Counted from the stretch's first letter, positions 3,646 to 29,447 are shown. The stretch: DNA of 29,525 nucleotides from an uncultured Chloroflexia bacterium (GCA_963749705.1 CAVVNQ010000009.1:1-29525), one strand, 5' to 3'. Notes: generated by a model from the sequence alone, not told the origin. Numbers and translations: made by a program.

Positions 3646-3647
3646 CC

Positions 3648-6464: not shown

Positions 6465-7468
6465 ATGACCCAGGAACGTACCGACCCCGGCACATCGCCC
6501 GGCGACGTCGCCACCCGGACGGCTCGAACCGTGCCGCAGTCGCGCCGTCCGCGGTACGACGGCCCGCTGATCGCGTGCGACAACCTGGTCAGGATCTACA
6601 AGGTCGCCAACCTCGAGGTGGTGGCCCTCCAGGGTCTCGACCTGCAGGTCGAGGCGGGCGAGTTCATCGCCCTGGTCGGCGCCTCCGGCAGCGGCAAGAG
6701 CACCCTCATGAACATCCTGGGCGGGCTCGACGTCCCGTCGGCCGGTCGAGCCGTGGTCGCCGGGCCACGACCTGGGTGAGATGGGGCGCCAGCGGCGGAC
6801 CGACTACCGGCGCCGGGTGATCGGCTTCGTATGGCAGCAGACCGCACGCAACCTGCTCTCGTACCTGACCGCGCGGCAGAACGTGGAGCTGCCGATGCTG
6901 CTCAACGGGATCGGGCGCGGCGAGCGCGAAGCGCGGGCGATGGACCTGCTGGCGCGGGTCGGGCTGGCCGATCGCGGCGAGCACCGTCCGGAGCGCCTGT
7001 CCGGCGGCGAGCAGCAGCGGGTGGCGATCGCCGTGGCGCTCGCCAACCAGCCGGCGGTGCTGTTCGCGGACGAGCCCACCGGCGAGCTCGACACGACCAC
7101 CGCCCACGAGGTGTTCGATCTGCTGCGCACCGTGAACCACGAGCTCGGGGTGACCATCGTCGTCGTCACCCACGATCCCGCTGGTCAGCGAGCAGGTCAG
7201 CCGCACGGTCGCGATCCGCGACGGCCGGACGAGCAGCGAGACGCTCCGCCGGCGGGCGGTCTCGCAGCAGGGTGACCACCACGTCATCAGCGAGGAGTAC
7301 GCCGTGCTCGATCGCGTCGGCCGCCTCCAGCTGCCGCGCAGCCACGTCGAGACGCTGGGCCTCGAGCGGCGGGTGCGGCTGGCCCTGGAACCGGACCACA
7401 TCAGCGTGTGGCCGGACCGCGACCGTTCGGGCGATGGGGATGGCGTCGACGGCGGGACGGACGCGTGA
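6465..7468 (+). pseudogene. ABC transporter ATP-binding protein (LolD/MacB type) with a C-terminal extension, split by two +1 frameshifts (pseudogene or sequencing error)
   Basis: Walker [10 protein letters not shown] in the frame starting 6465. An extra base at about 6762-6765 (GGGC CAC) shifts to the frame with the Q-loop, LSGGEQQRV, Walker B VLFADE and the H-loop VTHD. An extra base at about 7177-7180 (CCCG CTG) shifts to LVSEQVSRTVAIRDGR..., which ends at TGA 7466-7468 overlapping the next ATG. Confidence 0.85.
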
Positions 7469-8281: not shown

Positions 8282-9808
8282 TCAGCCCGATGGACGCTCG
8301 AGGCGGACCACGTTCCAAGAGCGCGGAGGGAGCTCCGCCACCAGCCGCCCCGAGTCGCGTCGCGCGCCGGTCACGCGTCTCGGCACGACCCGGTCCCCGG
8401 CCGTGGCCACGTTCGCCGCGCCGAGATCCGGGTCGGCCAGGACGTGGTGCGAGATCCGTGTGAGGTCATCAAGGTCGCGAAGCCTCGCGTCCAGGACGAG
8501 CGGGCGGTCCAGCCGGTTCACCGCGAACAGCGCGAGCGACGGGGTGGCAGCATCGAGGACGGCGACCGCCTCGATCGCCTGGACGCGGCCCTCGGACGCG
8601 ACGTATTCCGGCCCGTCGAGCTCGAGGTCCAGGGCTGTCCCGCGTGCGTACCGCGCGACATCCGCGAACGGATGGAACGAGGTCTGGCGCCACGCCGGCC
8701 CACCGGCAACCGTGCGGATCACCGGGATCACGTTGACCAGCTGGGCCAGGCACGCGATCCGGACCCGATCCGCGTGGCGCAGGAGCGTGATGAGCAGGCA
8801 GCCGACCACGAGGGCGTCGGCGACGTCATGCCGGTCCTCGGCGATCGCGGGCGCGTGACGGAACGGTCCCTCGGGTTCCTCGCGTGCCCGGTGCTCGGCC
8901 AGGCGCCACACGTTCCACTCGTCCACGCTCAGGCCGATCCGCCGGGCGCTGCCCTTGCGCCGGGCCACGCCATCCACGATCGCCGCGACGGACTCGATCA
9001 TCCGCGCCAGGTCGAGCGAACAGGCCAGGTAGTCGTCGACCGAGTCGTACGCAGCCGGGTCGTAGTAGCTGTGGAGGGAGATGTGGTCCACGACCTCCCA
9101 GGCGAGATCGAGGACCGTCTCCTCCCAGGCGCCGAAGGTCGGCATCCCGGACCCCGAGCTGCCGCACGCCACCAGCTCGATCGAGGGGTCGACGCGGCGC
9201 ATCGCGGCGCCGGCCTCCGCCGCCAGGCGGCCGTACTCGACGGCCGTCTTGTGGCCGATCTGCCACAGCCCATCCATCTCGTTGCCCAGGCACCACAGCC
9301 GGACGTCATGCGGCGCGGGATGGCCGTTTGCGACGCGCCGATCGCCGAAGCGTGAGCCCGTCGGCCCGTTGCAGTACTCCACGAGGTCACGAGCGGCCTC
9401 GGCTCCGCGCGTGCCCAGGTTGACGGCGAGCATCGGCGCCACGCCGGCCAGTCGCGTCCACGCAAGGAACTCGTCCGTGCCGACGGTGTTGGGCTCGATC
9501 GACCGCCACGCGAGGTCGAGCCGGGTCGGGCGAGCCTCGCGAGGGCCGACGCCATCCTCCCATCGGTAGCCGGATACGAAGTTCCCGCCCGGATACCGAA
9601 CGACGGTCACGCCCAGCTCGCGGACCAGAGCCACGACATCGCGTCGCCAGCCGTCATGGTCGGCCTCGGGGTGGTCCGGCTCGTAGATCCCGCCGTAGAT
9701 CGCCCGGCCCATGTGCTCCAGGAACGACCCGAACAGCCGTTCGTCGACCTCGCCAATGACGCGCGCTGGGTCGACGTCGGCGCTCGCCCCGACCCTGGCG
9801 TCAGGCAA
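8282..9808 (-). CDS. abfA: Alpha-L-arabinofuranosidase, GH51
   Basis: FGSFLEHMGRAIYGGIYEP, RYPGGNFVSGYRWEDGVGP, acid/base motif LGNEMDG and nucleophile motif DEWNVW. TTG start overlaps the GH3 stop. Confidence 0.93.
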   Translation of the reverse strand: MPDARVGASADVDPARVIGEVDERLFGSFLEHMGRAIYGGIYEPDHPEADHDGWRRDVVALVRELGVTVVRYPGGNFVSGYRWEDGVGPREARPTRLDLAWRSIEPNTVGTDEFLAWTRLAGVAPMLAVNLGTRGAEAARDLVEYCNGPTGSRFGDRRVANGHPAPHDVRLWCLGNEMDGLWQIGHKTAVEYGRLAAEAGAAMRRVDPSIELVACGSSGSGMPTFGAWEETVLDLAWEVVDHISLHSYYDPAAYDSVDDYLACSLDLARMIESVAAIVDGVARRKGSARRIGLSVDEWNVWRLAEHRAREEPEGPFRHAPAIAEDRHDVADALVVGCLLITLLRHADRVRIACLAQLVNVIPVIRTVAGGPAWRQTSFHPFADVARYARGTALDLELDGPEYVASEGRVQAIEAVAVLDAATPSLALFAVNRLDRPLVLDARLRDLDDLTRISHHVLADPDLGAANVATAGDRVVPRRVTGARRDSGRLVAELPPRSWNVVRLERPSG

Positions 9809-12158
9809 CGCTGGTCGTCGTCAGGTAGCGGTGGCGCTCGACCAGGTGCACGGTCTGTCCGACAAGCTCGAGCTGTCCGGCCAGCGGCAGGTCGGCCGCC
9901 GAGCTTCCGACCAGGACCTCGATCACCCCCGGCTCGACGACCCGCCGATGGTCGACCCCCACGTAGGCGAGCTGCTCCGCGCTGAGCGTGAACGACACCG
10001 TACGACGCTCCCCGGGCGCCAGCTCCACCCGGCGGAACCCGCGGAGCTCGAGGACCGGGCGGGCAACGGACGCTTCCGTGTCGCGGACGTAGAGCTGGAC
10101 CACCTCGCTGCCGTCCCGTGACCCCGTATTGGTGACATCGGCGGTGACCTCGACCTCGCCGCCATCGGTCGGCACGAGCGCGCGGTCCAGGCGGAGGTTC
10201 GACAGCTCGAACGTCGTGTACGACCGCCCGAACCCGAACGCCCACAGCGGGGACACCGGGCCGTCCACGTAGTCGCCCTTCCACGTCGATCGGCCGCCCG
10301 TCGGGTGGTGACGGTACGAGACCGGGACCTGGCCGACATGACGCGGGATCGAGATCGGCAGCTTGCCGCCGGGGTTGTGGTCGCCGAACAGGGCGCCCGC
10401 GATCGCCTCCGGACCCGCATCACCCGGCACCCACGCGAGCAGGACCGCCGAGCAATGGCTCGCAGCCCACTCGATCGCCAGCGGCCGACCGCTGACCACC
10501 ACCAGCACCACCGGGATCCCGGTCGCCACGACGGCCTCGAGCAGCTCCTGCTGGCGACCCATGAACCCGAGCTCGCGCCGATCCCGGAACTCGCCGGTGG
10601 TGGCGTTGTCCGTCAGGCCCGATCGCTCGCCGAGCACGAGGATCGCGACGTCGGACGATCGCGCCAGCTCGACGGCCTCGGCGATGTCGGCATCGGTCCC
10701 GCTGCGGATCCCGGTTCCCCGGGCGTGGGCGACCTGCGCACCCGGCACCCGGGCGGCGATGGCGTCGAAGATCGTCTGGCGACCGGCCAGCTCGTTGGCC
10801 GGCACGATCTCATCGGTCAGCGGGAAGCCGAACGCATTTCCCTGATCCCGCATCTCCATCAGGGTCTCGATGTGCAGCAGGTGGGCGTAGTCGCCGAGCA
10901 GCTCCCGGGCGCTCGCGGCAATCGGCCCGATCACCGCCACGCGCTGGACGTCCGTGCGCAGGGGCAGCGTCCCGTCGTTCTCCACGAGCACCAGCGAGCG
11001 GCGGGCAAGCTCCCCCGCGACCTTCGCCTCGTCGGCGGCGAGCGCGGCCAGCTGCTCGGCGGACGGCGGGTCCACGAACGGGCGCTCGAACAGTCCGAGC
11101 TCGAACTTCTGGCGCAGGATCCGCTCGACGATCCGGTCGATCCGTGACTCGCTCACCCGTCCGTCGGACAGGGCCTCCATCAGCGGTGGCCCGTACACCA
11201 CGGTCGTCGGCAGCTCGACATCGACACCGGCCGTGATCGCCAGCGCGGCCGTGACGGCAAGGTCGGCGGTCAGCTTGTGCCTGGCCGAGATCATGTGGAC
11301 GCCGGTGTAGTCCGAGACCACGGTCCCGCCGAACCCCCACTCGTCGCGCAGGATCTCGCTCAGCAGCTCGTGCGACGCGTGACACGGCACGCCGTCGAGG
11401 TCGCCGTAGGCGGGCATCACGCTCGCGATCCCCGCGTCCCGCACCGCCGCCTCGAAGGGGAACAGCTGCTCATCGCGCAGCTCGCGCATGCCGATGTGGC
11501 CGGGCGCCTGGTTGAGACCGCCCTCGGCGAGCCCGTGGCCGACCATGTGCTTGCCCGTCGCGACGACACCCTGCGACAGCGAATCGCCCTGGATGCCCCG
11601 GACGTGGGCGCAGCCGAGCTCCGCGGCCAGGTACGGATCCTCGCCGTACGTCTCCTCGATGCGACCCCACCTCGGGTCCCGGGTCACGTCAAGGACCGGC
11701 GCCAGCGACTGGCGGGCACCCGTGGCGAGCATCCGCCGGCGGACCGTCGATGCCATCTCCCGGACCAGGGCCGCGTCCCAGGAGGCCGCCGCGCCGATCG
11801 ATTGCTGGAAGCACGGAGCGTCGCGCGAGACGAGCCCGTGCAGCGATTCCTCGTGCACGATCGCGGGGATCCCGAGCCTCGTCTCCTCGACCAGGAACCG
11901 CTGCACGTCGTTGCCCAGCGCGGCAACCTCGCCTGCGCCGAGATTGGTCGCTCCGGCAATCCGCGTGATCTGGCCGATGCCGTGGCTCACCAGCTCCCTC
12001 GCCCGATCAGGGTTGAGGGTTCCCGTCCCCACGATCTCGAACGACCAGACGGACCTCAGCTGGGCGACCTTCTCCTCGATCGTCATCCGCTCGAGGAGGT
12101 CCCGGATCCGCTCCTCGATCGGGAGCGATGCATCGCGATACCGCTGTTCGACAAGCAT
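9801..12158 (-). CDS. GH3 beta-xylosidase/beta-glucosidase (BxlA-like) with a C-terminal Fn3-like domain
   Basis: RDPRWGRIEETYGEDP, KH motif, nucleophile VVSDY, NPGGKLPISIP and EVVQLYVRD. No signal peptide. Confidence 0.93.
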   Translation of the reverse strand: MLVEQRYRDASLPIEERIRDLLERMTIEEKVAQLRSVWSFEIVGTGTLNPDRARELVSHGIGQITRIAGATNLGAGEVAALGNDVQRFLVEETRLGIPAIVHEESLHGLVSRDAPCFQQSIGAAASWDAALVREMASTVRRRMLATGARQSLAPVLDVTRDPRWGRIEETYGEDPYLAAELGCAHVRGIQGDSLSQGVVATGKHMVGHGLAEGGLNQAPGHIGMRELRDEQLFPFEAAVRDAGIASVMPAYGDLDGVPCHASHELLSEILRDEWGFGGTVVSDYTGVHMISARHKLTADLAVTAALAITAGVDVELPTTVVYGPPLMEALSDGRVSESRIDRIVERILRQKFELGLFERPFVDPPSAEQLAALAADEAKVAGELARRSLVLVENDGTLPLRTDVQRVAVIGPIAASARELLGDYAHLLHIETLMEMRDQGNAFGFPLTDEIVPANELAGRQTIFDAIAARVPGAQVAHARGTGIRSGTDADIAEAVELARSSDVAILVLGERSGLTDNATTGEFRDRRELGFMGRQQELLEAVVATGIPVVLVVVSGRPLAIEWAASHCSAVLLAWVPGDAGPEAIAGALFGDHNPGGKLPISIPRHVGQVPVSYRHHPTGGRSTWKGDYVDGPVSPLWAFGFGRSYTTFELSNLRLDRALVPTDGGEVEVTADVTNTGSRDGSEVVQLYVRDTEASVARPVLELRGFRRVELAPGERRTVSFTLSAEQLAYVGVDHRRVVEPGVIEVLVGSSAADLPLAGQLELVGQTVHLVERHRYLTTTSVA

Positions 12159-12164
12159 CTGCCG

Positions 12165-13070
12165 TCAACCTTTCACGGAGCCGGCCGTCAGGCCGCCGAC
12201 GATCTGCCGTTCAGCGAACGCATAGAAGATGATCGCTGGGAGGATCGCGACGACCGTGAACGCCAGGATCCGGGCCTGGTCCCGGACGAACTCGCCCGAG
12301 AAGTTCATGACGCCCAACGGGAGCGTCCACTGATCTGCCCCGTTGAGCAGGATCAGCGGCAGCAGGAAGGCGTTCCAGGTGCCGACGATCGCGAGCACGC
12401 TGACCGTGGCCAGCGCGGGGCGGGCGAGCGGCAGCAGCACCCGCCAGAAGAACCCGAACGAGCCGCAGCCATCGATCCGGGCCGCGTCCTCCAGCTCCAG
12501 CGGGATGCTCCTGAAGAACGGCCGCAGGATGATGATGGTCAGCGGCAGGGCGAACGCTGCCTGCGGGAGCGCGACGCCGAGGAGATTGCCCTCGAGACCG
12601 AGCTGGCGCAGCAGGATGTACAGCGGCAGGATCGCCACGGCGGACGGGAACAGCAGGCCGAGCGTGAACAGCGTGTAGGCCGCCTCCCGGCCGCGGAAGG
12701 CCATCCGCGCGAACACGAACGCGGCGCAGGACCCGAGGCCGACCGTCGCCACGACGGCCACCACCGCGATGATCAGGCTGTTCGCCAGCTCGCGCCAGAA
12801 CGCGCCCGCGTTCTCGCCGACCAGGACGTCGGTGTAGTTCGACACCACCCACGGGTCGGGGATGATCGACCCGGGATCACCGACCAGCTGGCCGTTCGAC
12901 TTGAAGCCGCCCAGGACCGCATACACGATCGGGGCGAGGATCAGGGCGGCAACCGCCAGCAGGAACACGTAGCGGACGGCGCCCAGCAGGCTCATCCGGG
13001 CGATCCGGACCGCGACCCGCGAACGTGCGCGACGAGCGAGCTGCCCCTGGGTGGGATTGGTGGTCGTCAT
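12165..13070 (-). CDS. Carbohydrate ABC transporter permease (MalG/BxlG-like)
   Basis: EAA loop IPLELEDAARIDGC, six hydrophobic segments and C-terminal GLTAGSVKG. Confidence 0.93.
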   Translation of the reverse strand: MTTTNPTQGQLARRARSRVAVRIARMSLLGAVRYVFLLAVAALILAPIVYAVLGGFKSNGQLVGDPGSIIPDPWVVSNYTDVLVGENAGAFWRELANSLIIAVVAVVATVGLGSCAAFVFARMAFRGREAAYTLFTLGLLFPSAVAILPLYILLRQLGLEGNLLGVALPQAAFALPLTIIILRPFFRSIPLELEDAARIDGCGSFGFFWRVLLPLARPALATVSVLAIVGTWNAFLLPLILLNGADQWTLPLGVMNFSGEFVRDQARILAFTVVAILPAIIFYAFAERQIVGGLTAGSVKG

Positions 13071-13074
13071 GGCC

Positions 13075-14004
13075 CTACCCGTTGTATGCCGTCACCGCGC
13101 CCTCGGTGTCCCGGCGGAGCACCAGGCGCTGATACGCAAGCGCGAGCACCAGGGCCACGAGGAACAGCATCACGGCCAGCGCGCTGCCGTAGCCCATCTG
13201 GCTGCTGACGAAGCCCCCCTTGAACATCGTGATGGCCATCGTGTTCGAGGCGTTGATCGGACCGCCCTTGGTCATGACCCACACCATGTCGAACAGCTGC
13301 AGCGCCCCGATCATCGACAGGAACACGGAGACCCGGAGCGTCGGGCCAAGCAGCGGCAGCGTCACGTGGCGGAAGGCCTGCCAGCGACCGGCACCGTCGA
13401 TGAAGGCCGCCTCCTCGATCTCGCGCGGGATGCCCTGGAGGCCCGCCAGCAGCAGGATCATGTGGAACCCGAAGTACTTCCAGGAGATGATCACGAACAG
13501 GGTGAGCATCACCAGGCTCGTGTCGCCCAGCCAGTCCTGGATGAACGCGCCGAGGCCGACGCCGGTGAGCGCGGAGTCGACGGCCGCGCCGGGCCGGAGC
13601 ATCAGGCTGAACACCACGCCGGCGATCGCCTCCGACAGGACGTAGGGCAGAAAGAAGATCAGCCGCAGGACCGCCCGGCCCGGAAACCTGCGGTTGAGCA
13701 TCGCGGCGAGGGTGAGCGAGAACGGGATCTGGATGACCAGGGACAGGACGATCACGAGCACGTTGTTCGCGACCGCGCCCCTGAAGACGTCGCTGCCGAG
13801 CGCCGTCTCGTAGTTGCCGAGCCCGATGAAGTTCGTGAGCGGCTCGAGCCCGTTCCACTTGTACAGGCTGTAGAGCGCCGCCTGCGCGACCGGCAACAGG
13901 ACCAGCACGACGTACAGGACGAGGGCCGGCACCAGGAACAGGAAGATCGTCACCCACTTGGTCGGGATCCCGCCGACCCGCGGCCGACCCGTCGCTGCAC
14001 TCAT
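13075..14004 (-). CDS. Carbohydrate ABC transporter permease (MalF/BxlF-like)
   Basis: EAA loop IPREIEEAAFIDGA, FIGLGNY and MTKGGP motifs. Confidence 0.93.
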   Translation of the reverse strand: MSAATGRPRVGGIPTKWVTIFLFLVPALVLYVVLVLLPVAQAALYSLYKWNGLEPLTNFIGLGNYETALGSDVFRGAVANNVLVIVLSLVIQIPFSLTLAAMLNRRFPGRAVLRLIFFLPYVLSEAIAGVVFSLMLRPGAAVDSALTGVGLGAFIQDWLGDTSLVMLTLFVIISWKYFGFHMILLLAGLQGIPREIEEAAFIDGAGRWQAFRHVTLPLLGPTLRVSVFLSMIGALQLFDMVWVMTKGGPINASNTMAITMFKGGFVSSQMGYGSALAVMLFLVALVLALAYQRLVLRRDTEGAVTAYNG

Positions 14005-14029
14005 CGCGTCCTCGCCCGGCTACCTGGAA

Positions 14030-14061
14030 TCGCACGGGCCGGCGTGTGCCGGCCCGTGCGA
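14030..14061 (-). promoter_or_regulatory. Intercistronic 14-bp perfect stem-loop downstream of the solute-binding protein gene
   Basis: TCGCACGGGCCGGC-gtgt-GCCGGCCCGTGCGA. The position is typical of mRNA-stabilising or partial-terminator hairpins in sugar ABC operons. Confidence 0.65.
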
Positions 14062-14096
14062 GGTTCGCTCCCGATTGTGATCGCGTCCGCTGCCGG

Positions 14097-15458
14097 CTAC
14101 TGGGCCGCCGCGGCGTCCGTGATCGCCTGGCAGGTCTGCTCCGGGGTGGACGCGCCGAGGAACAGCGCGATGGTCGCGTCGTTGATCGCCGCGCCAAGCG
14201 CCGGAGACGTCGCCTGGTCGAGGTAGAGCTGGATGAAGCTGGCGGCCGAGACGCCCGCCCGGACGGCCTTGAGGTTCGGGTCGGTCACGCTCGACTCGGT
14301 GCCGTTGACCGGCGAGAGCGCGGTCGGCGGGGTCGAGGCGTTGAGCGTGTTCGCATTGTCGACGCTGCTGAAGAACTTGAGGAAGTCGATGGCTTCCGGA
14401 GGCGCGTCCTTGCCGACCGCGATCCCGTTGCCACCACCGACACCGTCGGTGGCCGCACCGGCACCGCCCTCAACGCCCGGGAAGGGGAACCAGCCGAGGT
14501 CGCTGCCGAGGCCTTCCCCGCTGGTGCTGTCGTTCGCCTGGACGCCCGGGGCCCACTGGCCCATGACCTCCATGGCGGACTGCCCATTGCCCACGGAGGC
14601 GGCCTCGTCGTCGTAGGTGGCGCTCTTGTAGCCGGGCTGGTACGGGTCTAGCGCGTTGAGCTTGAGGACCTGCTCACCGGCCGCCTTGCAGGCGTCGGTG
14701 CTCCAGTTGCCCGTCTGGACCATCTGCTGGAGGGCATCGGCCCCGGCCATGCGCAGGATGAGGTACGTCCAGAGGTGCATCGACGGCCACTTGTCCTTGC
14801 CGGCGATGGCAAGCGGGACGATCCCGGCCGCCTTGAGGGTGCTGACATCAGCGAGGAACTCGGTCCAGGTCGCGGGCGGAGCCGCGATGCCGGCCTTGGT
14901 GAACAGCTTCTTGTTGTACCAGACGCCGATCATCCCCTGGTCCCATGGGATGCCGTACTGGACGCCCTTGTAGGAGTAGATGCTCATCGCGCCCGCGTTG
15001 ATCGTGTCCTTCCAGGGCGCAACCGCCGCGGTGATGTCCTGCAGGGCGCCGGCATCGGCCTGGGCGGCCATCGTCCCACCGCCCCACGACTGGAACAGGT
15101 CGGGCGCCTGGCCCGACTGGATCGAGGTCGTCAGCTTGGTCTTGAACGCCTCGTTCTCGAGGACCGTGATGTTGATCGTGACATTCGGATGGGCCGCGGT
15201 GTAGGCGTCCGCGATCCCCTGGAAGATGGTCTTGCCCGGTTCGCCGGTGGTGATGTGCCACCACTCGATCGTGACCGGCTGTGCCGCCTCGGACGGAGCA
15301 GCCGACGACGGCGCGCTCGATGCCGCCGCGCTCGCGGCGGTCGTGGGTGCGGCAGTCGGTGAGCTGCTCGAGCAGGCGCTGACGACCAGCGCGGCGACTG
15401 CGAGCGTGCTTGTCAGCCTGAGACCCCAACCGGTAGTCACTCGCGTACCTCCAGCCAT
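14097..15458 (-). CDS. Extracellular sugar-binding lipoprotein (CUT1 family, BxlE-like)
   Basis: Strong RBS AGGAGGAG before ATG 15458 (an alternative GTG at 15440 has GGAGG). Lipobox VVSAC, S/A/P/T-rich linker, and PDLFQSWGGG motif typical of xylo-oligosaccharide/raffinose-type binding proteins. Confidence 0.92.
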   Translation of the reverse strand: MAGGTRVTTGWGLRLTSTLAVAALVVSACSSSSPTAAPTTAASAAASSAPSSAAPSEAAQPVTIEWWHITTGEPGKTIFQGIADAYTAAHPNVTINITVLENEAFKTKLTTSIQSGQAPDLFQSWGGGTMAAQADAGALQDITAAVAPWKDTINAGAMSIYSYKGVQYGIPWDQGMIGVWYNKKLFTKAGIAAPPATWTEFLADVSTLKAAGIVPLAIAGKDKWPSMHLWTYLILRMAGADALQQMVQTGNWSTDACKAAGEQVLKLNALDPYQPGYKSATYDDEAASVGNGQSAMEVMGQWAPGVQANDSTSGEGLGSDLGWFPFPGVEGGAGAATDGVGGGNGIAVGKDAPPEAIDFLKFFSSVDNANTLNASTPPTALSPVNGTESSVTDPNLKAVRAGVSAASFIQLYLDQATSPALGAAINDATIALFLGASTPEQTCQAITDAAAAQ

Positions 15459-15685
15459 TCGTCGCTCCTCCTCCTGCGGCTCGATCGAGCGGGATCCACG
15501 AGGATCTGCGTTCAGCGGTTCGGGCTGTGGCTGTGGATCCAGGCGACGAGCTCATCCGACCGGGCGGAGGAGCCACCCCAGACGAACGGGCTCGTGCCTG
15601 AACTGTCGAACGCCATGCGCACCGACTCCACATGCCCGGAACACGTTGACCGAGATCCGACGAGGGTCCGGACGACCGCCTCCTT

Positions 15686-15725
15686 GCCTCGAAAGTTTCA
15701 GACTATTACAAATCGCTTTCGAGGC
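15686..15725. promoter_or_regulatory. LacI (BxlR-like) operator region at the start of the transporter transcript
   Basis: Perfect 10-bp inverted repeat GCCTCGAAAG...CTTTCGAGGC with a 20-nt spacer, containing CGAAAGTTTCA (15690-15700). Confidence 0.7.
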
Positions 15726-15730
15726 TGTGG

Positions 15731-15759
15731 ACTCTAGGCATCTGCCACGGTGCCGTCAA
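15731..15759 (-). promoter_or_regulatory. Sigma-70 promoter of the sugar ABC/GH operon
   Basis: Minus strand reads TTGACG-17 nt-TAGAGT. Confidence 0.75.
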
Positions 15760-15833
15760 GGTCTGAACAGAAGATCCGGTCTTTGGGTTCGACGGGCGGC
15801 CCACCAACGACCGACGGCATCGCACTCGACTGC

Positions 15834-15851
15834 CGAAAGTTTCGATAGAAT
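15834..15851 (+). promoter_or_regulatory. Operator CGAAAGTTTCG adjacent to the -10 box TAGAAT of the lacI gene
   Basis: Palindrome at 15834-15844. TAGAAT at 15846-15851 sits 6 nt before ATG 15858, a leaderless geometry. Confidence 0.7.
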
Positions 15852-15857
15852 GCCCGC

Positions 15858-16895
15858 ATGCGTGGTTCCCCTCCAGCCAACGCCCCGCGGCCGGACAAGC
15901 CGATGACCATCGCGCGGATCGCCGCCCTCGCGGGCGTCTCATCGCCGACCGTGTCCAAGGTGATCAACGGCAGGGGCGACGTCTCGCTGCCGACCCGCCA
16001 GCGGGTCGAGGCCACCATCCGGGAGCATGGCTACCAGCGCGCCGCCAGGACCGCCAGATCCTCGCCGCTCCTCGAGGTCATCTTCAACGAGCTGGAGAGC
16101 GATTGGGCCCTCGAGATCATCAAGGGCGTCGAGCAGGTCGCCAGGGAGAACAACCTGGCGGTCGTGCTGTCCGAGATGCAGGGCCGCCGCGCAACCGGAC
16201 GTCGCTGGATCGACGGGGTGCTCGAGCGACGGCCAGTCGGCGTGATCGCGGTCCTGTCGGACCTGAACGATGGGGACCGCGTGCTCCTGCGCTCCCGCAA
16301 GATCCCCCTGGTCGCGATCGATCCCACCGGCGAGCCGCTGCACGACACCCCGTCCATCGGAGCGTCGAACTGGAGCGGTGGGCTCGCGGCGACCCGCCAT
16401 CTGCTCGGGCTGGGGCATCGACGAATCGCGGTGATCGCCGGCCCGGATGCCGTGCTGTGCAGCCGGGCGAGGCTGGATGGCTATCGCGCGGCGATGGACG
16501 AGGCGGGGGTCCCGATCGACCCGGACCTCATCCGCCATGGCAACTTCCACGTTCGCGAGGGAGTGCTGGAAGGGCGATCGCTGCTGAGCCGGCCGGATCC
16601 GCCGACCGCGATCTTCGCGGGCAACGATCTGCAGGCGCTGGGCGTGTACCAGGCTGCGCGGGCCGCCCGACTCCACATCCCGGACGACCTCAGCGTGGTC
16701 GGCTTCGATGACCTGCCGGTCGCGGCCTGGGTCGGTCCGCCGCTGACGACGATCCGCCAGCCGCTGGTCCAGATGGCCGTCGCCGGCGCGCGACTCGCGG
16801 TGCGTCTGGGCCGTGGCGAACGCCCGTCGCAGACGCGCGTGGAGCTGGCCACGGAGCTCGTCGTCCGGGGCAGCACGGCGCGCCCGATTCGATAG
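15858..16895 (+). CDS. LacI-family transcriptional regulator (BxlR-like)
   Basis: HTH TIARIAALAGVSSPTVSKVING, plus HLLGLGHRRIA, IPDDLSVVGFDD and PPLTTIRQP. Divergent from the sugar operon. Start is 15858 or 15903. Confidence 0.93.
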   Translation: MRGSPPANAPRPDKPMTIARIAALAGVSSPTVSKVINGRGDVSLPTRQRVEATIREHGYQRAARTARSSPLLEVIFNELESDWALEIIKGVEQVARENNLAVVLSEMQGRRATGRRWIDGVLERRPVGVIAVLSDLNDGDRVLLRSRKIPLVAIDPTGEPLHDTPSIGASNWSGGLAATRHLLGLGHRRIAVIAGPDAVLCSRARLDGYRAAMDEAGVPIDPDLIRHGNFHVREGVLEGRSLLSRPDPPTAIFAGNDLQALGVYQAARAARLHIPDDLSVVGFDDLPVAAWVGPPLTTIRQPLVQMAVAGARLAVRLGRGERPSQTRVELATELVVRGSTARPIR

Positions 16896-16912
16896 CCGCC
16901 CGGGAGGGCAAC

Positions 16913-17884
16913 ATGCCGACGATCGACCTGCCGCTCGACGAGCTCCGGACCTACGCGGGCAGCAATCCACGACCCGACGACTTCGACGCGTACTGGGACG
17001 ACGCCCTGGCCGAGCTCGCCGCCGTCGACGACCAGGTGGAGCTGGAGCCGGTGACCCACCCCTCCCCGATCGCGGCGTGCTTCGATCTCTGGTTCACGGG
17101 CGTCGGCGGGGCGCGGATCCACGCGAAGCACCTGCGCCCGCGCGTCCAGGCTGACCCCGGCCCCGGGCTGGTGGTGTTCCACGGCTATTCGATGGCAAGC
17201 CCGGACTGGTTCGCGCTCCTCCCGTACGTCGCCCAGGGATACTCGGTCGTCGCGCTCGACTGCCGGGGTCAGGGCGGGATGTCCGAGGATGTCGGCGGAT
17301 CGCCCGGGATGACGCTCTCCGGGCACATCGTCCGCGGCCTCGCGGGATCGCCCAGCGACCTGCTGTACCGAAGCATCTTCCTCGACTGCGTCCAGGCGAC
17401 GAGGATCCTCATGGGCCTGCCCGGCGTCGACGCCACCCGGATCGGCGCAACGGGCGCGTCACAGGGAGGCGGGCTGACGCTCGCATGCGCAGCACTGGAG
17501 CCGCGCGTCCGGGCCGCCGCACCCGTCTACCCGTTCCTGAGCGATTACCGACGGGTCTGGGAGCTGGATCTGGCGGAACGCGCGTACGCGGAGCTTCGCG
17601 ACTATCTCCGCCGGTTCGACCCGACGCACGAGCGGGCCGCAGCCTTCTTCCACACGCTCGGCTACATCGACGTGCAGCACCTGGCACCGCGGATCACGGC
17701 GGACGTGCTGATGGTGACCGGCCTGATGGACGACGTGTGCCCGCCGTCGACGCAGTTCGCCGCCTACAACAAGATCAGCAGTCGCAAGCAGATGGTCCTG
17801 TACCCGGACTTCGGGCACGAGAACCTGCCCGGCAACGACGACCGGATCCTCGCCTTCTTCGCCTCGACGCTCCAGGGCGCCTAG
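16913..17884 (+). CDS. Acetylxylan esterase / cephalosporin-C deacetylase, CE7
   Basis: PDDFDAYW, DCRGQGG, nucleophile GASQGGG, DDVCPPSTQFAAYN and GHE. RBS GGGAGG. Confidence 0.92.
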   Translation: MPTIDLPLDELRTYAGSNPRPDDFDAYWDDALAELAAVDDQVELEPVTHPSPIAACFDLWFTGVGGARIHAKHLRPRVQADPGPGLVVFHGYSMASPDWFALLPYVAQGYSVVALDCRGQGGMSEDVGGSPGMTLSGHIVRGLAGSPSDLLYRSIFLDCVQATRILMGLPGVDATRIGATGASQGGGLTLACAALEPRVRAAAPVYPFLSDYRRVWELDLAERAYAELRDYLRRFDPTHERAAAFFHTLGYIDVQHLAPRITADVLMVTGLMDDVCPPSTQFAAYNKISSRKQMVLYPDFGHENLPGNDDRILAFFASTLQGA

Positions 17885-24787: not shown

Positions 24788-24805
24788 GATGGTATCGTTA
24801 CCATC
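24788..24805. promoter_or_regulatory. LacI-type operator palindrome upstream of the epimerase operon
   Basis: GATGGTA-TCGT-TACCATC with a central CG. It contains the -10-like TACCAT and lies 45 nt before ATG 24851. Confidence 0.7.
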
Positions 24806-24850
24806 GGCGATGTCAGCGTACGGCTCACAGAGGATGAAAGGCGGTCCGCG

Positions 24851-25912
24851 ATGGCCACTGAGCACAGCGATACGGTCCCCGGCACGAACGTCGCGCGCGG
24901 CCTGGGCAAGGACGATCTGATCGTCATTGCCGGCGCGGGTGGGTTCATCGCCGGCTCGCTGACGAGGTACTTCGCGGATCAGGGCTTCACCCGGATCCGG
25001 GCGATCGATCGCAAGCCGCTCCCGGACTGGTATGTGCGGGTGCCCGGCGTCGAGTCGATCTCGATGGACCTCTCGTACCGCGAGAACGCGGTCGCCGCGG
25101 TCGCGGGTGCGACCGAGGTCTACAACCTCGCGGCCGACATGGGCGGCATGGGTTTCATCGAAAAGTTTCGGGTCGAGTGCCTGCGCAGCGTCCTCGTGAA
25201 CACGCACCTGACGGAGGCCGCCTGGCGGGCCGGAGTCCAGCGCTACTTCTTCTCATCGTCGGCATGCGCGTACAACACCGACCTCCAGAAGAGCCCGGAC
25301 GTCATCGCCCTCAAGGAGTCGGACGCCTACCCGGCGATGGCCGAGCGCGGCTACGGGTGGGAGAAGCTGTTCTCGGAGATGGTGTGCCAGGAGTACACCG
25401 CGGAACGCGGGCTCGAGACGCACATCGCCCGCTTCCACAACATCTACGGCCCGAACGGCACCTGGTTCGGCGGCCGGGAGAAGGCACCGGCGGCGATGTG
25501 CCGCAAGGTGATCGAGGCGCAGGACAGCGGCAACCTCCAGATCGAGATCTGGGGTGACGGAACGCAGACGCGGAGCTTCTGCTACATCGACGACTGCCTC
25601 CACGGCATCGACCTCATCATGCATACGCCCCGGTTGATCGCGACCCCGATCAACCTCGGCTCGTCCGAGCTCGTGTCCATCAACGAGCTGGTCTCGATCG
25701 TCGAAGACCTCGCCGGCGTGCACCTCGACCGCACCTACAAGCTCGACGCCCCGAAGGGGGTTGCCGGCCGGAACAGCGACAACACGTTCATCCAGGAGGT
25801 GCTCGGGTGGGAGCCGAACACGCCACTGCGGACCGGGATGGCGGCCACGTACGCCTGGATCCGTGACCAGTACGCGTTGCGCAAGGCGGGCAAGCGCGTG
25901 GTCGAGGGCTGA
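24851..25912 (+). CDS. NAD-dependent epimerase, GDP-mannose 3',5'-epimerase (GME)-like extended SDR
   Basis: GAGGFIA, NLAADMGGMGFI, SSSACAY, YGWEK (YxxxK), RFHNIYGP, GGREKAPAAMCRK and WGDGTQTRSF; these match the GME signature segments. Confidence 0.88.
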   Translation: MATEHSDTVPGTNVARGLGKDDLIVIAGAGGFIAGSLTRYFADQGFTRIRAIDRKPLPDWYVRVPGVESISMDLSYRENAVAAVAGATEVYNLAADMGGMGFIEKFRVECLRSVLVNTHLTEAAWRAGVQRYFFSSSACAYNTDLQKSPDVIALKESDAYPAMAERGYGWEKLFSEMVCQEYTAERGLETHIARFHNIYGPNGTWFGGREKAPAAMCRKVIEAQDSGNLQIEIWGDGTQTRSFCYIDDCLHGIDLIMHTPRLIATPINLGSSELVSINELVSIVEDLAGVHLDRTYKLDAPKGVAGRNSDNTFIQEVLGWEPNTPLRTGMAATYAWIRDQYALRKAGKRVVEG

Positions 25913-25916
25913 CGAG

Positions 25917-26726
25917 TTGTCGGATCCCGCGGCCGGATCCCCGCCCGCACTGCACGAGGTCATCGGCGGTCTCCCCTACCGGCTGCAGCTCGCCGGCGGC
26001 TGGATCGACCAGCCCTGGATGTCGGCGGCGAACCCCGAGCCGTCCGGGTCGATGGTGGTCGTCTCGCTCGAGCCCACCTTCCGCTACATGGACCGCGCCG
26101 GGATGGCGACCGGCACCCGGGCCGCCGCCGAGCGGCTGTGGGGTGGCTCCCTGCCGCGAGGCCGGCCGGCTCGAGAGCTGGTGCGCGAGCTGTATGCGGT
26201 GGAGAACGCCGACAAGGTGGAGCCCTCCGGGTCCCAGGACATGTGCGGCATCGTCTATCCCGGCATCAGCCGCCTCGACTATGCCGCGTCCGCCAACGGT
26301 GGCTGGTTCCCTGCGCACGTCGAAAGCACCTGCGACGACGACGTCGCGAGGTGGCTGGAGCGGGTGGTCCAGCTGGTGCCCGTCATGCAGCGCCCGGTGG
26401 GCTACACCCCGCTCGGCGTCAAGCACCTCGACCCCGGCTGGGTCGCACGGCTCGGCCGGAGCGGCCGGGCATGCTACGAGGCCATCGTCACGAGGGACCT
26501 CGCAGCGCTGGGCGCCTCGCTGACCGAGACGGCAGCGTGCTGGGATGCCCTGCTGCCGCACGTGCATGCCCATCCGACGATCAGCGTGGATCTGCCGGCC
26601 CTGCTCGTCGCGTACCAGGCGGACAGTGCCGGGGCGATGTATTCGGGATGTGGCGGCGGCTACCTGATCGTCGTGTCGGACAGGGCGGTCCCGGGCTCGC
26701 TCCGTGTCTCGGTCCGGGTGCGGTGA
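25917..26726 (+). CDS. GHMP-superfamily sugar kinase-like protein (compact, HddA/fucokinase-related), about 269 aa
   Basis: Motif-1-like PYRLQLAGGWIDQP, motif-2-like RAGMATGT, SGSQD and motif-3-like YSGCGGGYL. TTG start 4 nt after the upstream stop (start uncertain). Confidence 0.7.
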   Translation: MSDPAAGSPPALHEVIGGLPYRLQLAGGWIDQPWMSAANPEPSGSMVVVSLEPTFRYMDRAGMATGTRAAAERLWGGSLPRGRPARELVRELYAVENADKVEPSGSQDMCGIVYPGISRLDYAASANGGWFPAHVESTCDDDVARWLERVVQLVPVMQRPVGYTPLGVKHLDPGWVARLGRSGRACYEAIVTRDLAALGASLTETAACWDALLPHVHAHPTISVDLPALLVAYQADSAGAMYSGCGGGYLIVVSDRAVPGSLRVSVRVR

Positions 26727-27583
26727 GCGACACAAGGGGTCGCCGCGGCCCGAGACCCGTCTCGACCGTCGTGGTGACGGCAAGCCTCGACAACATGACG
26801 TCCGCGGACGTGCGCCTGCTGCAGGAGGCGGCCCGCCTCGGGCCGGTGCACGTCCGGGTCCCGTCCGACGAGCTGGTCGAGCGGATGACCGGCAAGCCGC
26901 CGACCTTCCCCCAGTCCGAGCGGCGGTTCCTCGCCGCCGCTCTCCGGTGCGTCAACACCGTGGGCGTGGTCGATCGGGACATCCAGGCGAGCCTGCCCAG
27001 CATCGCCGCGCAGTTCCAGGCACTTGTGATCCGGGAGGGCGAGGATGCCGAACGGCTTCGGGCCGCGTGGACGGGACACGGCCGCGAGCTGCGAACGGTC
27101 AGCGCGTCCGACCTCGAGGGCTTCCCCGACTGGGTCAGCGATCCGGCGCAGGTGCGGCCAGGTCGCGCCGATCCACGTCGAACGGTCGTCACCGGGTGCT
27201 ACGACTGGCTTCACTCCGGGCACATCCGGTTCTTCATGGACGCGTCCCGTTTCGGACCGCTCTACGTGGTCGTCGGCAGCGACCACAATGTGGAGCTGCT
27301 CAAGGGGCCCGGGCACCCGTTGCAGCGCGAACAGGAGCGTCGGTACATGGTGAGCGCCATCCGCCACGTGCATCGCGCCATCGTCTCGACCGGCGGGGGA
27401 TGGATGGACGCCGAGCCCGAGATCGCGTGGATCCGACCGACGTCCTACGTGGTCAACGAGGACGGTGACCAGCCGGAGAAGCGCGAATTCTGCGCGTCGC
27501 GAGGCATCGAGTACGTCGTCCTGCGGCGGCTCCCCCACCGCGGCCTGCCGGCCCGGAACAGCACCGACCTGCGCGGCTTCTGA
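26723..27583 (+). CDS. Cytidylyltransferase-like (HxGH) nucleotidyltransferase with two tandem domains, the N-terminal one degenerate
   Basis: GTGA overlap with the kinase stop. C-domain has VVTGCYDWLHSGH, GSD, LKG, ERRYMV and RNSTDLR. N-domain has VVTASLDNMTSAD, PSD and ERRFL. Confidence 0.82.
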   Translation: MSDTRGRRGPRPVSTVVVTASLDNMTSADVRLLQEAARLGPVHVRVPSDELVERMTGKPPTFPQSERRFLAAALRCVNTVGVVDRDIQASLPSIAAQFQALVIREGEDAERLRAAWTGHGRELRTVSASDLEGFPDWVSDPAQVRPGRADPRRTVVTGCYDWLHSGHIRFFMDASRFGPLYVVVGSDHNVELLKGPGHPLQREQERRYMVSAIRHVHRAIVSTGGGWMDAEPEIAWIRPTSYVVNEDGDQPEKREFCASRGIEYVVLRRLPHRGLPARNSTDLRGF

Positions 27584-27586
27584 AGC

Positions 27587-28597
27587 ATGGCGACGCTCGC
27601 TGACGTCGCGCGCCGAGCCGGCGTGTCGCCGATGACCGTCTCAAGGGTCATCCGCAACGCGGAGCCGGTCAGCGACAGGACGCGCGCGCGCGTGGAGCAG
27701 GCGATCGCCGAGGTCGGTTATGTGCCCAACGTGCTTGCCCGCAGCCTGCGAGCGCAGCGCACGCTCACCATCGGCCTGCTCCTCAGCGACATGACGAACC
27801 CGTTCTTCACGACCGTCGCCCACGGCGTCGAGACCGCCGCCAGTGCGGCCGGCCTCGCCCTGCTGCTGGCGAACACCAGGGAGAGCGAGGCCGAGGAGCA
27901 ACGGCTGATCCAGACGCTGCTGGAGCGACGGGTCGACGGCATCTGTTTCGTGCCGGCGGGCGACGGCGTGGCAACGATCCAGGCGGCGCTCGAGCACCAG
28001 ACGCCGATCGTGGCGATCGACCGGCGCCCGAAGAGCCGCGCCGCCGACAGCGTCCGGTCCGACTCGATCGGTGGGGCGCGGCAGCTCGGCGCGCTGCTCA
28101 CGTCGCTCGGCCACCGGGTCACGGCGATCCTCGCCGGGCCCATCGGTGTATCGACCGCCGATGACCGCGTGCAGGGCTTCCGCGCGTCGATCGCGGCATG
28201 TCCGGACGCCCGTCCGCCCCGCGTGCTTCGGGGCCCGCTCACGGTCGAAGGGGGGATGGACCTGGCCCGCGCCGCCATGGACCTCCGACCTCGGCCGACC
28301 GCCCTGTTCGCGGCCAACAACTTCCTCGCGATCGGCGCGCTCCACGCCCTCGACCAGCTGGGCATCCGGGTCCCGGATGACGTTGCCGTCGTCGGCTTCG
28401 ACGACCTGCCGCCGGTGATGGTGGTCTTTCCGTTCCTGACGGTCGCCGCCCAACCCGCGTTCGAGATGGGGCAGCGCAGCGTGGAGCTCCTGCTGGACCG
28501 GATCGCCGGCCGGGCCGGCCGGGCACGGGAGCTCGTCCTCCCGACGCAGCTCGTGATCCGACGTTCGAGTGGCTCGCCCATCGCGCTCGAGGCGTGA
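27587..28597 (+). CDS. LacI-family transcriptional regulator
   Basis: HTH TLADVARRAGVSPMTVSRV, hinge YVPNVLARSL and VPDDVAVVGFDD. Starts 3 nt after the upstream stop. Confidence 0.93.
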   Translation: MATLADVARRAGVSPMTVSRVIRNAEPVSDRTRARVEQAIAEVGYVPNVLARSLRAQRTLTIGLLLSDMTNPFFTTVAHGVETAASAAGLALLLANTRESEAEEQRLIQTLLERRVDGICFVPAGDGVATIQAALEHQTPIVAIDRRPKSRAADSVRSDSIGGARQLGALLTSLGHRVTAILAGPIGVSTADDRVQGFRASIAACPDARPPRVLRGPLTVEGGMDLARAAMDLRPRPTALFAANNFLAIGALHALDQLGIRVPDDVAVVGFDDLPPVMVVFPFLTVAAQPAFEMGQRSVELLLDRIAGRAGRARELVLPTQLVIRRSSGSPIALEA

Positions 28598-28760
28598 CCG
28601 TCGCGCGTCGCGTTGCCGCCGGTCAGGTGATCCCGTAGGGTTGGCGCTGGCAGTCCCAGGCGATCGGCACGTCCCAGCGCCTGCCCGGCGGCACTCACAC
28701 CGTCAGGCGCGCGCCCGCCGCTGCGACGACCCGCTGATGTCGACGTCAGGAAGGACCACG

Positions 28761-29180
28761 ATGCTCAAGACCCGCCTGCTCCACCCGCAGATCCTGGCCG
28801 CGCTGGGCGAGGCCGGCCATGGTTCGCAGGTCCTCATCGCCGACGGCAACTACCCGCTGGCGACCCGGTCCAACCCATCGGCGGCGAGGGTGTTCCTGAA
28901 CCTTGCGCCGGGCCATGTCACCGTGACCGATGTGCTCGAGGTCATCGCCGAGGCGATCGAGGTCGAGACGGCGCACGTGATGGGCCCCGACGACGGCAGC
29001 GAGCCGCCGATCTATCAGGATTTTCGTCGCCTGCTGCCTGGCAACGACCTCGTGCGGCTTGGTCGGTTCGAGTTCTACGACCTGGCCAGCAGCTCCGACT
29101 GCGCGCTCGCCATCGCGACGGGCGAGGAGCGCATCTACGCCAACATCCTGCTCACGATCGGCGTGGTCGAGCCCGGGTAG
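28761..29180 (+). CDS. RbsD/FucU family sugar mutarotase/pyranase
   Basis: AGGAAGGA RBS. LLHPQILAALGEAGHGSQVLIADGNYP, RFEFYD and IATGEERIYANILLTIGVV. Confidence 0.9.
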   Translation: MLKTRLLHPQILAALGEAGHGSQVLIADGNYPLATRSNPSAARVFLNLAPGHVTVTDVLEVIAEAIEVETAHVMGPDDGSEPPIYQDFRRLLPGNDLVRLGRFEFYDLASSSDCALAIATGEERIYANILLTIGVVEPG

Positions 29181-29371: not shown

Positions 29372-29447
29372 GGGGCTATAGCTCAGCTGGGAGAGCGTCT
29401 GAATGGCATTCAGAAGGTCCGGGGTTCGAATCCCCGTAGCTCCACCA
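29372..29447 (+). tRNA. tRNA-Ala (GGC)
   Basis: 76-nt cloverleaf: acceptor GGGGCTA/TAGCTCC with G3:U70, anticodon arm TCTGA-ATGGCAT-TCAGA, T-loop TTCGAAT and encoded CCA. Confidence 0.98.

Follow-up and report, generated by a model that had tools for sequence, protein, structure and literature searches.

Candidate Leloir-like nucleotide-sugar route for an L-sugar in a putatively LacI-controlled operon of an uncultured Chloroflexia bacterium

Which sugar is handled, and in which direction, by an operon that sets a sugar kinase outside all library families between a homologue of plant GDP-mannose 3,5-epimerase (GME) and a nucleotidyltransferase? The question is raised by the 3' end of a contig from an uncultured Chloroflexia bacterium (GCA_963749705.1, CAVVNQ010000009.1:1-29525). 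The window analysed is the entire 29.5-kb contig (29,525 nucleotides), and its source genome, of 3.6 Mb and ~70% G+C, is 88% complete. Five plus-strand genes at the 3' end of the window encode, in order, the epimerase, the kinase, the transferase, a LacI-family repressor and an RbsD/FucU-family mutarotase (Table 1). The original prediction, made from the sequence alone, saw in them a Leloir-like pathway for a rare L-sugar, and comparative evidence supports that reading; the four steps each map to a gene of verified family or fold. On balance we think it probable that this is a LacI-repressed operon for a Leloir-like nucleotide-sugar route, which would carry a free L-galacto-configured sugar, most likely L-galactose, into the mannose pool.

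In outline, the FucU-type mutarotase would supply the beta anomer of the free L-galacto-configured sugar, which the 269-residue fucokinase-like GHMP kinase would phosphorylate at C1. The tandem HxGH transferase would make the nucleotide sugar, probably GDP-L-galactose with GTP as donor, and the GME homologue would epimerise this at both C3 and C5 to give GDP-D-mannose. Mannose-1-phosphate would be released either by a ManC-type guanylyltransferase running in reverse or by a Nudix enzyme; phosphomannomutase (PMM) would then yield mannose-6-phosphate and phosphomannose isomerase (PMI) fructose-6-phosphate. A more specific proposition is that bacteria widely run the plant ascorbate route in reverse over its first committed steps, as a catabolic pathway from L-galactose through L-galactose-1-phosphate, GDP-L-galactose and GDP-mannose to mannose-1-phosphate, and that they do so with two uncharacterised enzyme families, a minimal, 270-residue GHMP anomeric L-sugar kinase and a tandem, GTP-using HxGH transferase. 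This we rate as an even bet.

The epimerase matches the Pfam family Epimerase (PF01370) with 115 bits. Its best matches in the PDB are the plant GMEs 8sg0 (E 1.1e-78) and 2c59 (E 3.2e-77), identity being about 50% as read from the 2c59 alignment. According to the available portion of a review of the GM35E family (PMC8787198), the marks of these enzymes are Ser143, Tyr174 and Lys178, the acid-base pair Cys145/Lys217, Arg306, Arg243, which is assigned to the diphosphate, and Asn203; the same portion distinguishes them from the GDP-fucose synthases (GMER/Fcl) by a Lys rather than a His as base and by Arg306 in place of Lys. In the 2c59 alignment, where the chain numbering is shifted by +2, all eight residues of AtGME (S143, C145, Y174, K178, N203, K217, R243 and R306) are identical in the window protein. 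The Ser143/Tyr174/Lys178 triad of the SDR (short-chain dehydrogenase/reductase) superfamily corresponds to S137, Y168 and K172, while C139, K211, R307, R241 and N197 correspond to Cys145, Lys217, Arg306, Arg243 and Asn203. Nor do the eight vary in any of 19 epimerases taken from related loci (see below), the most distant included. A GMER (Fcl) type was considered and excluded, the base being Lys and not His; the NCBIfam Fcl model reaches 100.5 bits against a cut-off of 500. By all eight defining residues, the predicted protein is thus a GDP-mannose 3,5-epimerase homologue. Characterised members of its family act on GDP-sugars, which speaks for GDP as the nucleotide of the route.

The kinase presents a different picture, having no Pfam match at E-values up to 0.01, no NCBIfam match and no match to PDB sequences with phmmer. 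The original prediction's call of a GHMP kinase accordingly found no confirmation in sequence libraries, but structure and profile comparisons did confirm it. An AlphaFold model built on 28 sequences has a predicted local distance difference test (pLDDT) of 93.5, and 194 chains score at least Z 8 against it. They include the heptokinase WcbL (4usk; VIA-align Z 22.4, root-mean-square deviation 3.9, 242 aligned residues), the fucokinase domain of FKP (9iip; Z 20.4, deviation 2.9, 229 aligned, 21% identity) and galactokinases at Z 19-20 (1s4e, Z 20.0). With a profile of the kinase family, the best PDB match is FKP (E 7.2e-15), the heptose kinases following at 6.5e-9 and weaker. Of 21 distant relatives, three match Pfam GHMP_kinases_C.

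When the profile is aligned with 9iip and 5yys, kinase residues R22, W29 and D31 fall on R592, W599 and D601 of FKP, and G105, Q107 and D108 on G759, Q761 and D762. No substitution of R22, W29, D31, G105 or D108 occurs among 28 kinase-family sequences, in which Q107 is almost as constant; Thr602 of FKP becomes Gln32. In the accessible part of the FKP study (PMC11982464), Asp762 acts as the general base, with Arg592 stabilising the transition state; Trp599 is stacked against C4-C6 of the sugar, whose C3 and C4 hydroxyls are bound by Asp601 and Gln761. Also conserved in the family are G244 and G246-248 (GGG) at the C-terminal end, as well as the loop G62-M-A-T-G/S-T67-R68, which precedes helix 65-75 of the model. 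The canonical GHMP phosphate-loop motif is GSGLGSS, beside which GMATGTR, the putative phosphate loop of the kinase, is atypical. Because of this loop and a length ~90 residues below that of the FKP kinase domain (269 against about 360 residues), we label the protein, judging from its model, as a GHMP-fold fucokinase-like enzyme that is outside every existing library family.

That family is large. At E 0.001, at least 6102 of 8000 candidates scored are kinase homologues; among the 120 matches listed they are 64-97% identical, and their source names read only 'hypothetical protein'. At the 50% identity level there are 624 representatives, and the Atlas clusters are unnamed too. The window kinase is encoded by a stand-alone gene and has no N-terminal GDP-fucose pyrophosphorylase. 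Of the 21 longer or distant relatives that were scanned, 12 combine kinase and transferase domain in one protein, as is also seen in the related loci L028 and L029; single relatives carry an L-rhamnose mutarotase, a nucleoside-phosphorylase-type, or a GT2 or TcdA/TcdB-type glycosyltransferase domain.

In the transferase, Pfam recognises only the C-terminal half (CTP_transf_like, residues 157-222, 43.1 bits against a cut-off of 21). This domain bears HSGH at residues 164-167, and H164, G166, H167, R278, S280 and T281, which make up the HxGH and an RxxST-type motif, are invariant in 16 of 16 homologues. The N-terminal domain, to judge from the 16 homologues and the model, retains the cytidylyltransferase fold and is without the HxGH motif. 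Over its whole length the model (pLDDT 84.8) matches the two-domain human ECT (Foldseek TMq 0.70). ECT has the same tandem architecture, but both of its domains carry HxGH (HYGH and HIGH in the alignment). Single-domain matches found by Foldseek are HldC, Fom1 and TagD. All NCBIfam matches lie far below their cut-offs, the top one being RfaE domain II (TIGR02199), at 68.9 bits against 181.5.

Such matches invite the explanation that the operon serves another nucleotide or sugar class, its transferase making an ADP- or CDP-linked sugar as RfaE/HldC and TagD do and its epimerase being merely GME-like. RfaE domain II is a heptose-1-phosphate adenylyltransferase, and WcbL, the top structural match of the kinase, is a heptokinase, tied with FKP to within about 2 units of Z. 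The shortfall of the NCBIfam scores argues the other way, as does the kinase profile, in which FKP ranks six orders of magnitude above the heptose kinases. The epimerase, about half of whose residues are those of plant GME, keeps every defining one; ManC-type guanylyltransferases follow in the operon in 10 related loci; and in three loci, described below, an FKP-type guanylyltransferase substitutes for the HxGH enzyme. We regard an ADP- or CDP-linked product as quite improbable.

A wider set of loci bears on the proposed guanylyl transfer. It comprises 108 loci related to that in the window, 28 from species genomes, spanning Chloroflexota, Acidobacteriota/Terriglobia, Bacteroidales and Sedimentisphaerales, and 80 from metagenomes. 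The latter were retrieved with a 10-sequence kinase alignment and represent only close relatives (58-69% identity), distant contexts being thinly sampled. Counts of neighbours rest on tblastn; the simple caller of open reading frames (ORFs) takes, in high-GC loci, ORFs antisense to the transferase gene and over-extends some starts, an 826-residue 'PMM' in L098, the 5' part of which is unrelated to the transferase, being one such artefact. The epimerase is no more than 3 kb away from the kinase in 87 of the 108 loci, and the HxGH transferase in 85. Restricting the count to the 48 loci that extend for 3 kb or more to either side gives 48 and 44. The gene-neighbourhood check proposed with the original prediction, for which a failure of homologous genes to co-occur would have spoken against the pathway, thus finds the trio together in Chloroflexota, Acidobacteriota, Bacteroidales and Sedimentisphaerales, in the company of catabolic regulators, fucosidases, FucU, ManC, PMM and importers.

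Three loci are of particular value. In L063 (3758-5380), L084 (1-1170) and L109 (3554-4894) the kinase adjoins a stand-alone protein that matches PF07959 and positions 87-506 of NCBIfam PRK13412, namely the fucose-1-phosphate guanylyltransferase half of FKP, and tblastn finds no HxGH gene within 3 kb of the kinase. We read the FKP-N-type gene as a non-orthologous displacement of the HxGH enzyme, and this constitutes our main argument that the transfer step would be a sugar-1-phosphate guanylyl transfer. In these three loci the mini-kinase and the FKP-N-like protein would make a split FKP-like pair.

The company kept by the module across the 108 loci can be summarised as follows. Regulators are of the LacI (18 loci) or AraC (11) families; fucosidases belong to GH29 (12) or GH95 (3); FucU occurs in 12, L-rhamnose mutarotase in two and L-fucose isomerase (FucI) in four; ManC-type mannose-1-phosphate guanylyltransferases are found in 10, PMM in four and Nudix proteins in four; and a CUT2 sugar-binding protein (6), MFS proteins (3) and GH2 (4) are also seen. 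Taking regulators, fucosidases, mutarotases and mannose-end genes together, 56 loci have at least one of them. Certain gene orders stand out: LacI-GME-kinase-transferase-FucU-PMM, all on one strand, in L033, and GME-kinase-transferase-ManC in L047, L082 and L090, with a Nudix gene after ManC in L047. L066 has a gene run ending PMM-GH95. A PMI-like gene lies between the transferase and FucU-FucI in L002, with ManC opposite, and another PMI-like gene occurs in L035. In L086 (1921-6210), L093 (1865-9466) and L108 (6874-14990), two to three GH29 paralogues stand between the epimerase, kinase and transferase genes, in operons under AraC control with the AraC gene divergent; GH2 is interleaved as well in L108.

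A number of observations weigh against the proposed route. Genes for the mannose end (ManC, PMM or Nudix) are found in only 15 of the 108 loci, many of which are short contigs. The source genome does have ManC adjacent to a PGM/PMM gene on another contig (C18), yet no GH29, FucI or type-I PMI C-terminal domain (PMI_typeI_C) was found in this 88% complete genome, and no sugar importer beside the operon. The closest solved HxGH relatives of the transferase (ECT, TagD and HldC) use CTP or ATP, and we know of no HxGH relative that uses GTP. In the window, the 163-nt gap in front of the FucU gene contains no operator. L-galactose is an uncommon sugar to be served by a module of such wide occurrence, and the presence of FucI in four loci and of an aldolase with an FGGY kinase in L097 points to L-fucose instead. 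So does FKP itself, which has the same sugar-binding residues: as far as the available part of PMC11982464 extends, it also converts L-galactose to GDP-L-galactose, with ~100-fold weaker affinity than it shows for L-fucose. Finally, the L029 module lies 1.5 kb upstream of lipopolysaccharide (LPS)-core genes (LpxK, HldE, GmhA and a heptosyltransferase), and distant kinase-family members P0177 and P0185 are fused to GT2 or TcdA/TcdB-type glycosyltransferase domains.

The last two observations would suit a salvage pathway for glycans. The kinase and transferase would recycle L-fucose or L-galactose to the GDP-L-sugar, as Fkp does in Bacteroides, while the epimerase and ManC would feed in GDP-L-galactose made de novo from mannose. 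FKP is indeed the closest characterised relative of the kinase, ManC and PMM can run in either direction, and LPS or antibiotic synthesis is the role that GME reviews, in the portions available, give to the bacterial enzymes (PMC6678494, PMC8787198). Glycan assembly nevertheless leaves little trace around the module: among 228 neighbour proteins scanned with Pfam there is no glycosyltransferase, flippase or polymerase save a single GT9 in L029, ~6 kb from the module within the LPS-core cluster, and among the 24 window ORFs scanned no glycosyltransferase or export family was found, as had been noted from the sequence originally. The regulators are of the sugar-responsive LacI and AraC kinds, the conserved operators also cover importer and FucU-FucI genes, and GH29 and GH95 genes lie within the operons. 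The epimerase would, moreover, drain the GDP-L-sugar that salvage is meant to provide, the GME equilibrium favouring GDP-mannose, and yet it is the most constant partner of the kinase (48/48). We consider glycan salvage unlikely, and turn to the substrate that a catabolic route into the mannose pool would take.

The original prediction offered L-galactose or L-gulose. The kinase residues matched to FKP favour the former and tell against the latter: L-gulose is the C3 epimer of L-galactose, Asp601 of FKP binds the C3 hydroxyl, and the matching kinase residue is invariant. D-arabinose and L-gulose were both set aside as substrates, the mannose-end genes being explained less well by either than by L-galactose.

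L-fucose requires more discussion, as it is far commoner in nature than L-galactose and the kinase residues in question are the L-fucose binders of FKP. It could be imagined to pass by way of fucose-1-phosphate to GDP-L-fucose, and by 3,5-epimerisation to GDP-6-deoxy-D-mannose (GDP-D-rhamnose). The environment is suggestive, with GH29 or GH95 in 15 of the 108 loci besides the FucU and FucI genes counted above (12 and four loci). However, a 6-deoxy sugar cannot pass PMM and PMI, and yet PMM, PMI-like and ManC genes occur in the operons. Nor is there any mark of an altered substrate in the epimerase, whose eight GM35E residues are unchanged and which shows no difference from enzymes acting on GDP-L-galactose. 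To our knowledge, no onward catabolism has been described for D-rhamnose-1-phosphate. There is, in our estimate, only a slim chance that the epimerase step acts on GDP-L-fucose, and for these reasons, the fate of a 6-deoxy sugar and the unaltered epimerase, we prefer L-galactose. L-fucose may still be a second substrate of the kinase, and in some loci it is evidently handled alongside, by FucI or by the aldolase and FGGY kinase of L097.

Turning to the arrangement of the operon, the tight coupling of four genes followed at a distance by RbsD/FucU was described correctly from the outset, the gaps being 4, -4, 3 and 163 nt. The kinase starts with TTG at 25917, 4 nt past the TGA stop of the epimerase (25910-25912), and the transferase with GTG at 26723, sharing a 4-nt GTGA overlap with the kinase stop. 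The RbsD/FucU gene has an ATG start and a GGAAGGA ribosome site. A scan of the plus strand of the window for promoters and terminators gave nothing usable.

Table 1. Positions in the 29,525-nt window of the operon's elements, followed by those of other features
Feature	Position	Strand	Basis or remark
LacI-type operator palindrome TGGTATCGTTACCA	24790-24803	.	48 nt 5' of epimerase ATG
GDP-mannose 3,5-epimerase homologue (SDR), predicted	24851-25912	+	Pfam, PDB matches, residue alignment
Fucokinase-like GHMP kinase, 269 residues, without library family, predicted	25917-26726	+	Model fold, family profile
Tandem HxGH (cytidylyltransferase-fold) nucleotidyltransferase, 286 residues	26723-27583	+	Pfam, model, Foldseek
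LacI-family repressor, gene four of the operon	27587-28597	+	Pfam
RbsD/FucU-family mutarotase	28761-29180	+	Pfam RbsD_FucU
tRNA-Ala (GGC)	29372-29447		Directly 3' of FucU; contig ends 78 nt further
FtsX-type permeases in tandem, then ABC ATPase genes	250-6449		
Adjacent ORFs of one ABC_tran ATPase domain	6465-6779 and 6781-7275		Different frames
Arabinoxylan-type utilisation locus	8282-17884		
T2SSE and L-PSP/RidA-like fusion, 725 residues	18721-20898	-	

The claim of LacI control fared well as to its components, a LacI gene and an operator palindrome both being present; its headline obscured the gene order, in which the epimerase comes first and LacI fourth, inside the operon rather than apart and ahead of it. 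The protein matches the Pfam LacI HTH and Peripla_BP_1/3/4 families, the NCBIfam RbsR, CytR and PurR models all remaining below their cut-offs. The palindrome reported before the first gene is there, 14 bp long with a central CG, and has no second match in the window; at least one match arises in 6-7 of 100 shuffles. Comparison shows it to be conserved. Of the 18 LacI-bearing loci, 15 have a TGnTAnCGnTAnCA site with at most one mismatch in the 250 nt 5' of either the epimerase gene or LacI, and such sites number 25 in the 218 kb of LacI loci against eight in the 858 kb of the 90 non-LacI loci. Further operator sites precede FucU-FucI in L002 and L004, and the CUT2 ABC importer in L004. The protein is a LacI-family repressor with a predicted palindromic operator of a conserved kind.

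The last gene matches Pfam RbsD_FucU with 106 bits, and NCBIfam does not discriminate between its two constituents, giving RbsD 39.3 bits against a cut-off of 93 and FucU 38.5 against 141. Synteny favours the FucU type, because its orthologues in L002 (85% identity with the window protein) and L004 (83%) directly adjoin L-fucose isomerase. In both of those loci the isomerase gene comes next after FucU, in the place that tRNA-Ala has in the window.

The module is sparsely distributed around its host. In the sample from its own phylum, the kinase occurs in three of 301 genomes, the source genome included: it is present in two of 15 members of the same family, and in none of the other families sampled. 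A same-genus copy (G079:C31:10691-11461) is 68% identical to the window kinase and a same-family copy (G151:C7:32843-33619) 64%. Other phyla have copies at least as close (71% in L002), and 13 of 15 sampled family members lack the gene. This patchiness, together with a same-genus copy no closer than those of other phyla, suggests an accessory module that moves horizontally.

How does the proposed route compare with known systems? In its Isselbacher (pyrophosphorylase) version, the Leloir pathway (GalM, GalK, UDP-sugar pyrophosphorylase and GalE) has the same order of mutarotase, anomeric GHMP kinase, nucleotidyl transfer and SDR epimerisation, likewise leads to a common hexose-1-phosphate, and is also under LacI-type repressor control. 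The operon would differ in its input, an L-sugar, in its nucleotide, probably GDP rather than UDP, and in its output, mannose-1-phosphate. Its mutarotase is of the FucU and not the GalM family, its transferase has the HxGH fold in place of GalT/GalU, and its epimerisation would be a double one at C3 and C5, not at C4; only the kinase and epimerase superfamilies are common to both. With FKP, the bifunctional L-fucokinase/GDP-L-fucose pyrophosphorylase of Bacteroides fragilis (5yys, 9iip, 9iit), the kinase shares six matched catalytic and sugar-binding residues; but FKP joins its kinase to a left-handed-helix pyrophosphorylase and serves glycan synthesis, whereas the operon kinase, either free-standing or joined with an HxGH domain, is always paired with GME. 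The GMEs themselves (plant 2c59/8sg0, bacterial MfGM35E) have the eight defining residues, in roles that are biosynthetic, in plant ascorbate and cell wall formation or, as proposed, in bacterial LPS or antibiotic sugars, whereas the operon setting predicts the reverse, catabolic direction. In ADP-heptose synthesis (HldE/HldC with HldD), too, a sugar kinase is coupled or, in HldE, fused to a sugar-1-phosphate nucleotidyltransferase of the HxGH kind, and an SDR epimerase acts next, although the HldE kinase is ribokinase-like rather than GHMP and HldD acts at C6 of a heptose.

The presumed substrate is shared with the oxidative routes of Bacteroides vulgatus and Luteolibacter, which, unlike the operon, begin with L-galactose dehydrogenase and proceed via L-galactonate. 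In the portion available of a 2025 paper on L-galactose catabolism (PMC12632266), the routes are oxidative, GDP is not mentioned and the kinases act on fructose or KDG. The literature searched, which covers few subscription journals, contained no description of a route linking GME with a kinase, fucosidases or catabolism, and no characterisation of this cluster as a surface-glycan locus; for an L-galactose kinase, guanylyltransferase or salvage it yielded only an unrelated kiwifruit review. What is new here is probably that different enzyme families carry out the Leloir logic on an L-sugar. If correct, this would be a third bacterial L-galactose route, based on nucleotide sugars rather than oxidation, and a second Leloir-type pathway in nature, with GME in a primary catabolic role in bacteria. 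It would provide a physiological role for many bacterial GME homologues and an annotation for a kinase family with thousands of 'hypothetical protein' members, and it would open a new substrate class to the HxGH transferase fold, of which this transferase would be the first member known to us that uses GTP on a sugar-1-phosphate. GDP-L-galactose and other L-sugar nucleotides could usefully be produced with the enzymes. The route would also explain how soil, peat and sediment bacteria use L-galactose, and perhaps L-fucose, cut from plant or algal glycans by GH29 and GH95 enzymes.

Separately, URO-D-superfamily proteins of two kinds recur beside the module (L002, L004, L005, L007, L024, L026, L037, L062, L103 and L104; for example L007:3249-4553, L007:11275-12306 and L004:14932-16188). 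The first kind comprises MtaA/CmuA-like methyltransferase homologues, detected by tblastn in five of the 108 loci. The second is a 434-residue protein with no Pfam or NCBIfam match, present in 10 of the 108, whose Atlas clusters are auto-named URO-D-like; no relative of this Pfam-less protein (c11) was found in the 88% complete source genome. URO-D-like genes in L006, L024 and L026 lie beside MTHFR-like and pterin-binding genes. Such neighbours may point to the removal of methyl groups from sugars that carry them, 2-O-methyl-fucose for instance.

The remainder of the window holds an arabinoxylan-type locus and unrelated genes (Table 1). The former comprises a GH51-like arabinofuranosidase, GH3, two ABC permeases, a binding protein, a LacI of its own and an AXE1 acetyl-xylan esterase, and no TGGTAnCGnTACCA-type operator was found within it. 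Near the 5' end are two very long FtsX-type permeases, of 1131 and about 935 residues. Of the two adjacent ORFs that follow, one has the first 44 and the other the last 83 positions of a single ABC_tran domain, as though the gene were frameshifted or the assembly wrong. On the minus strand, an unusual fusion unites a T2SSE type II/IV secretion ATPase with a C-terminal L-PSP/RidA endoribonuclease-like domain.

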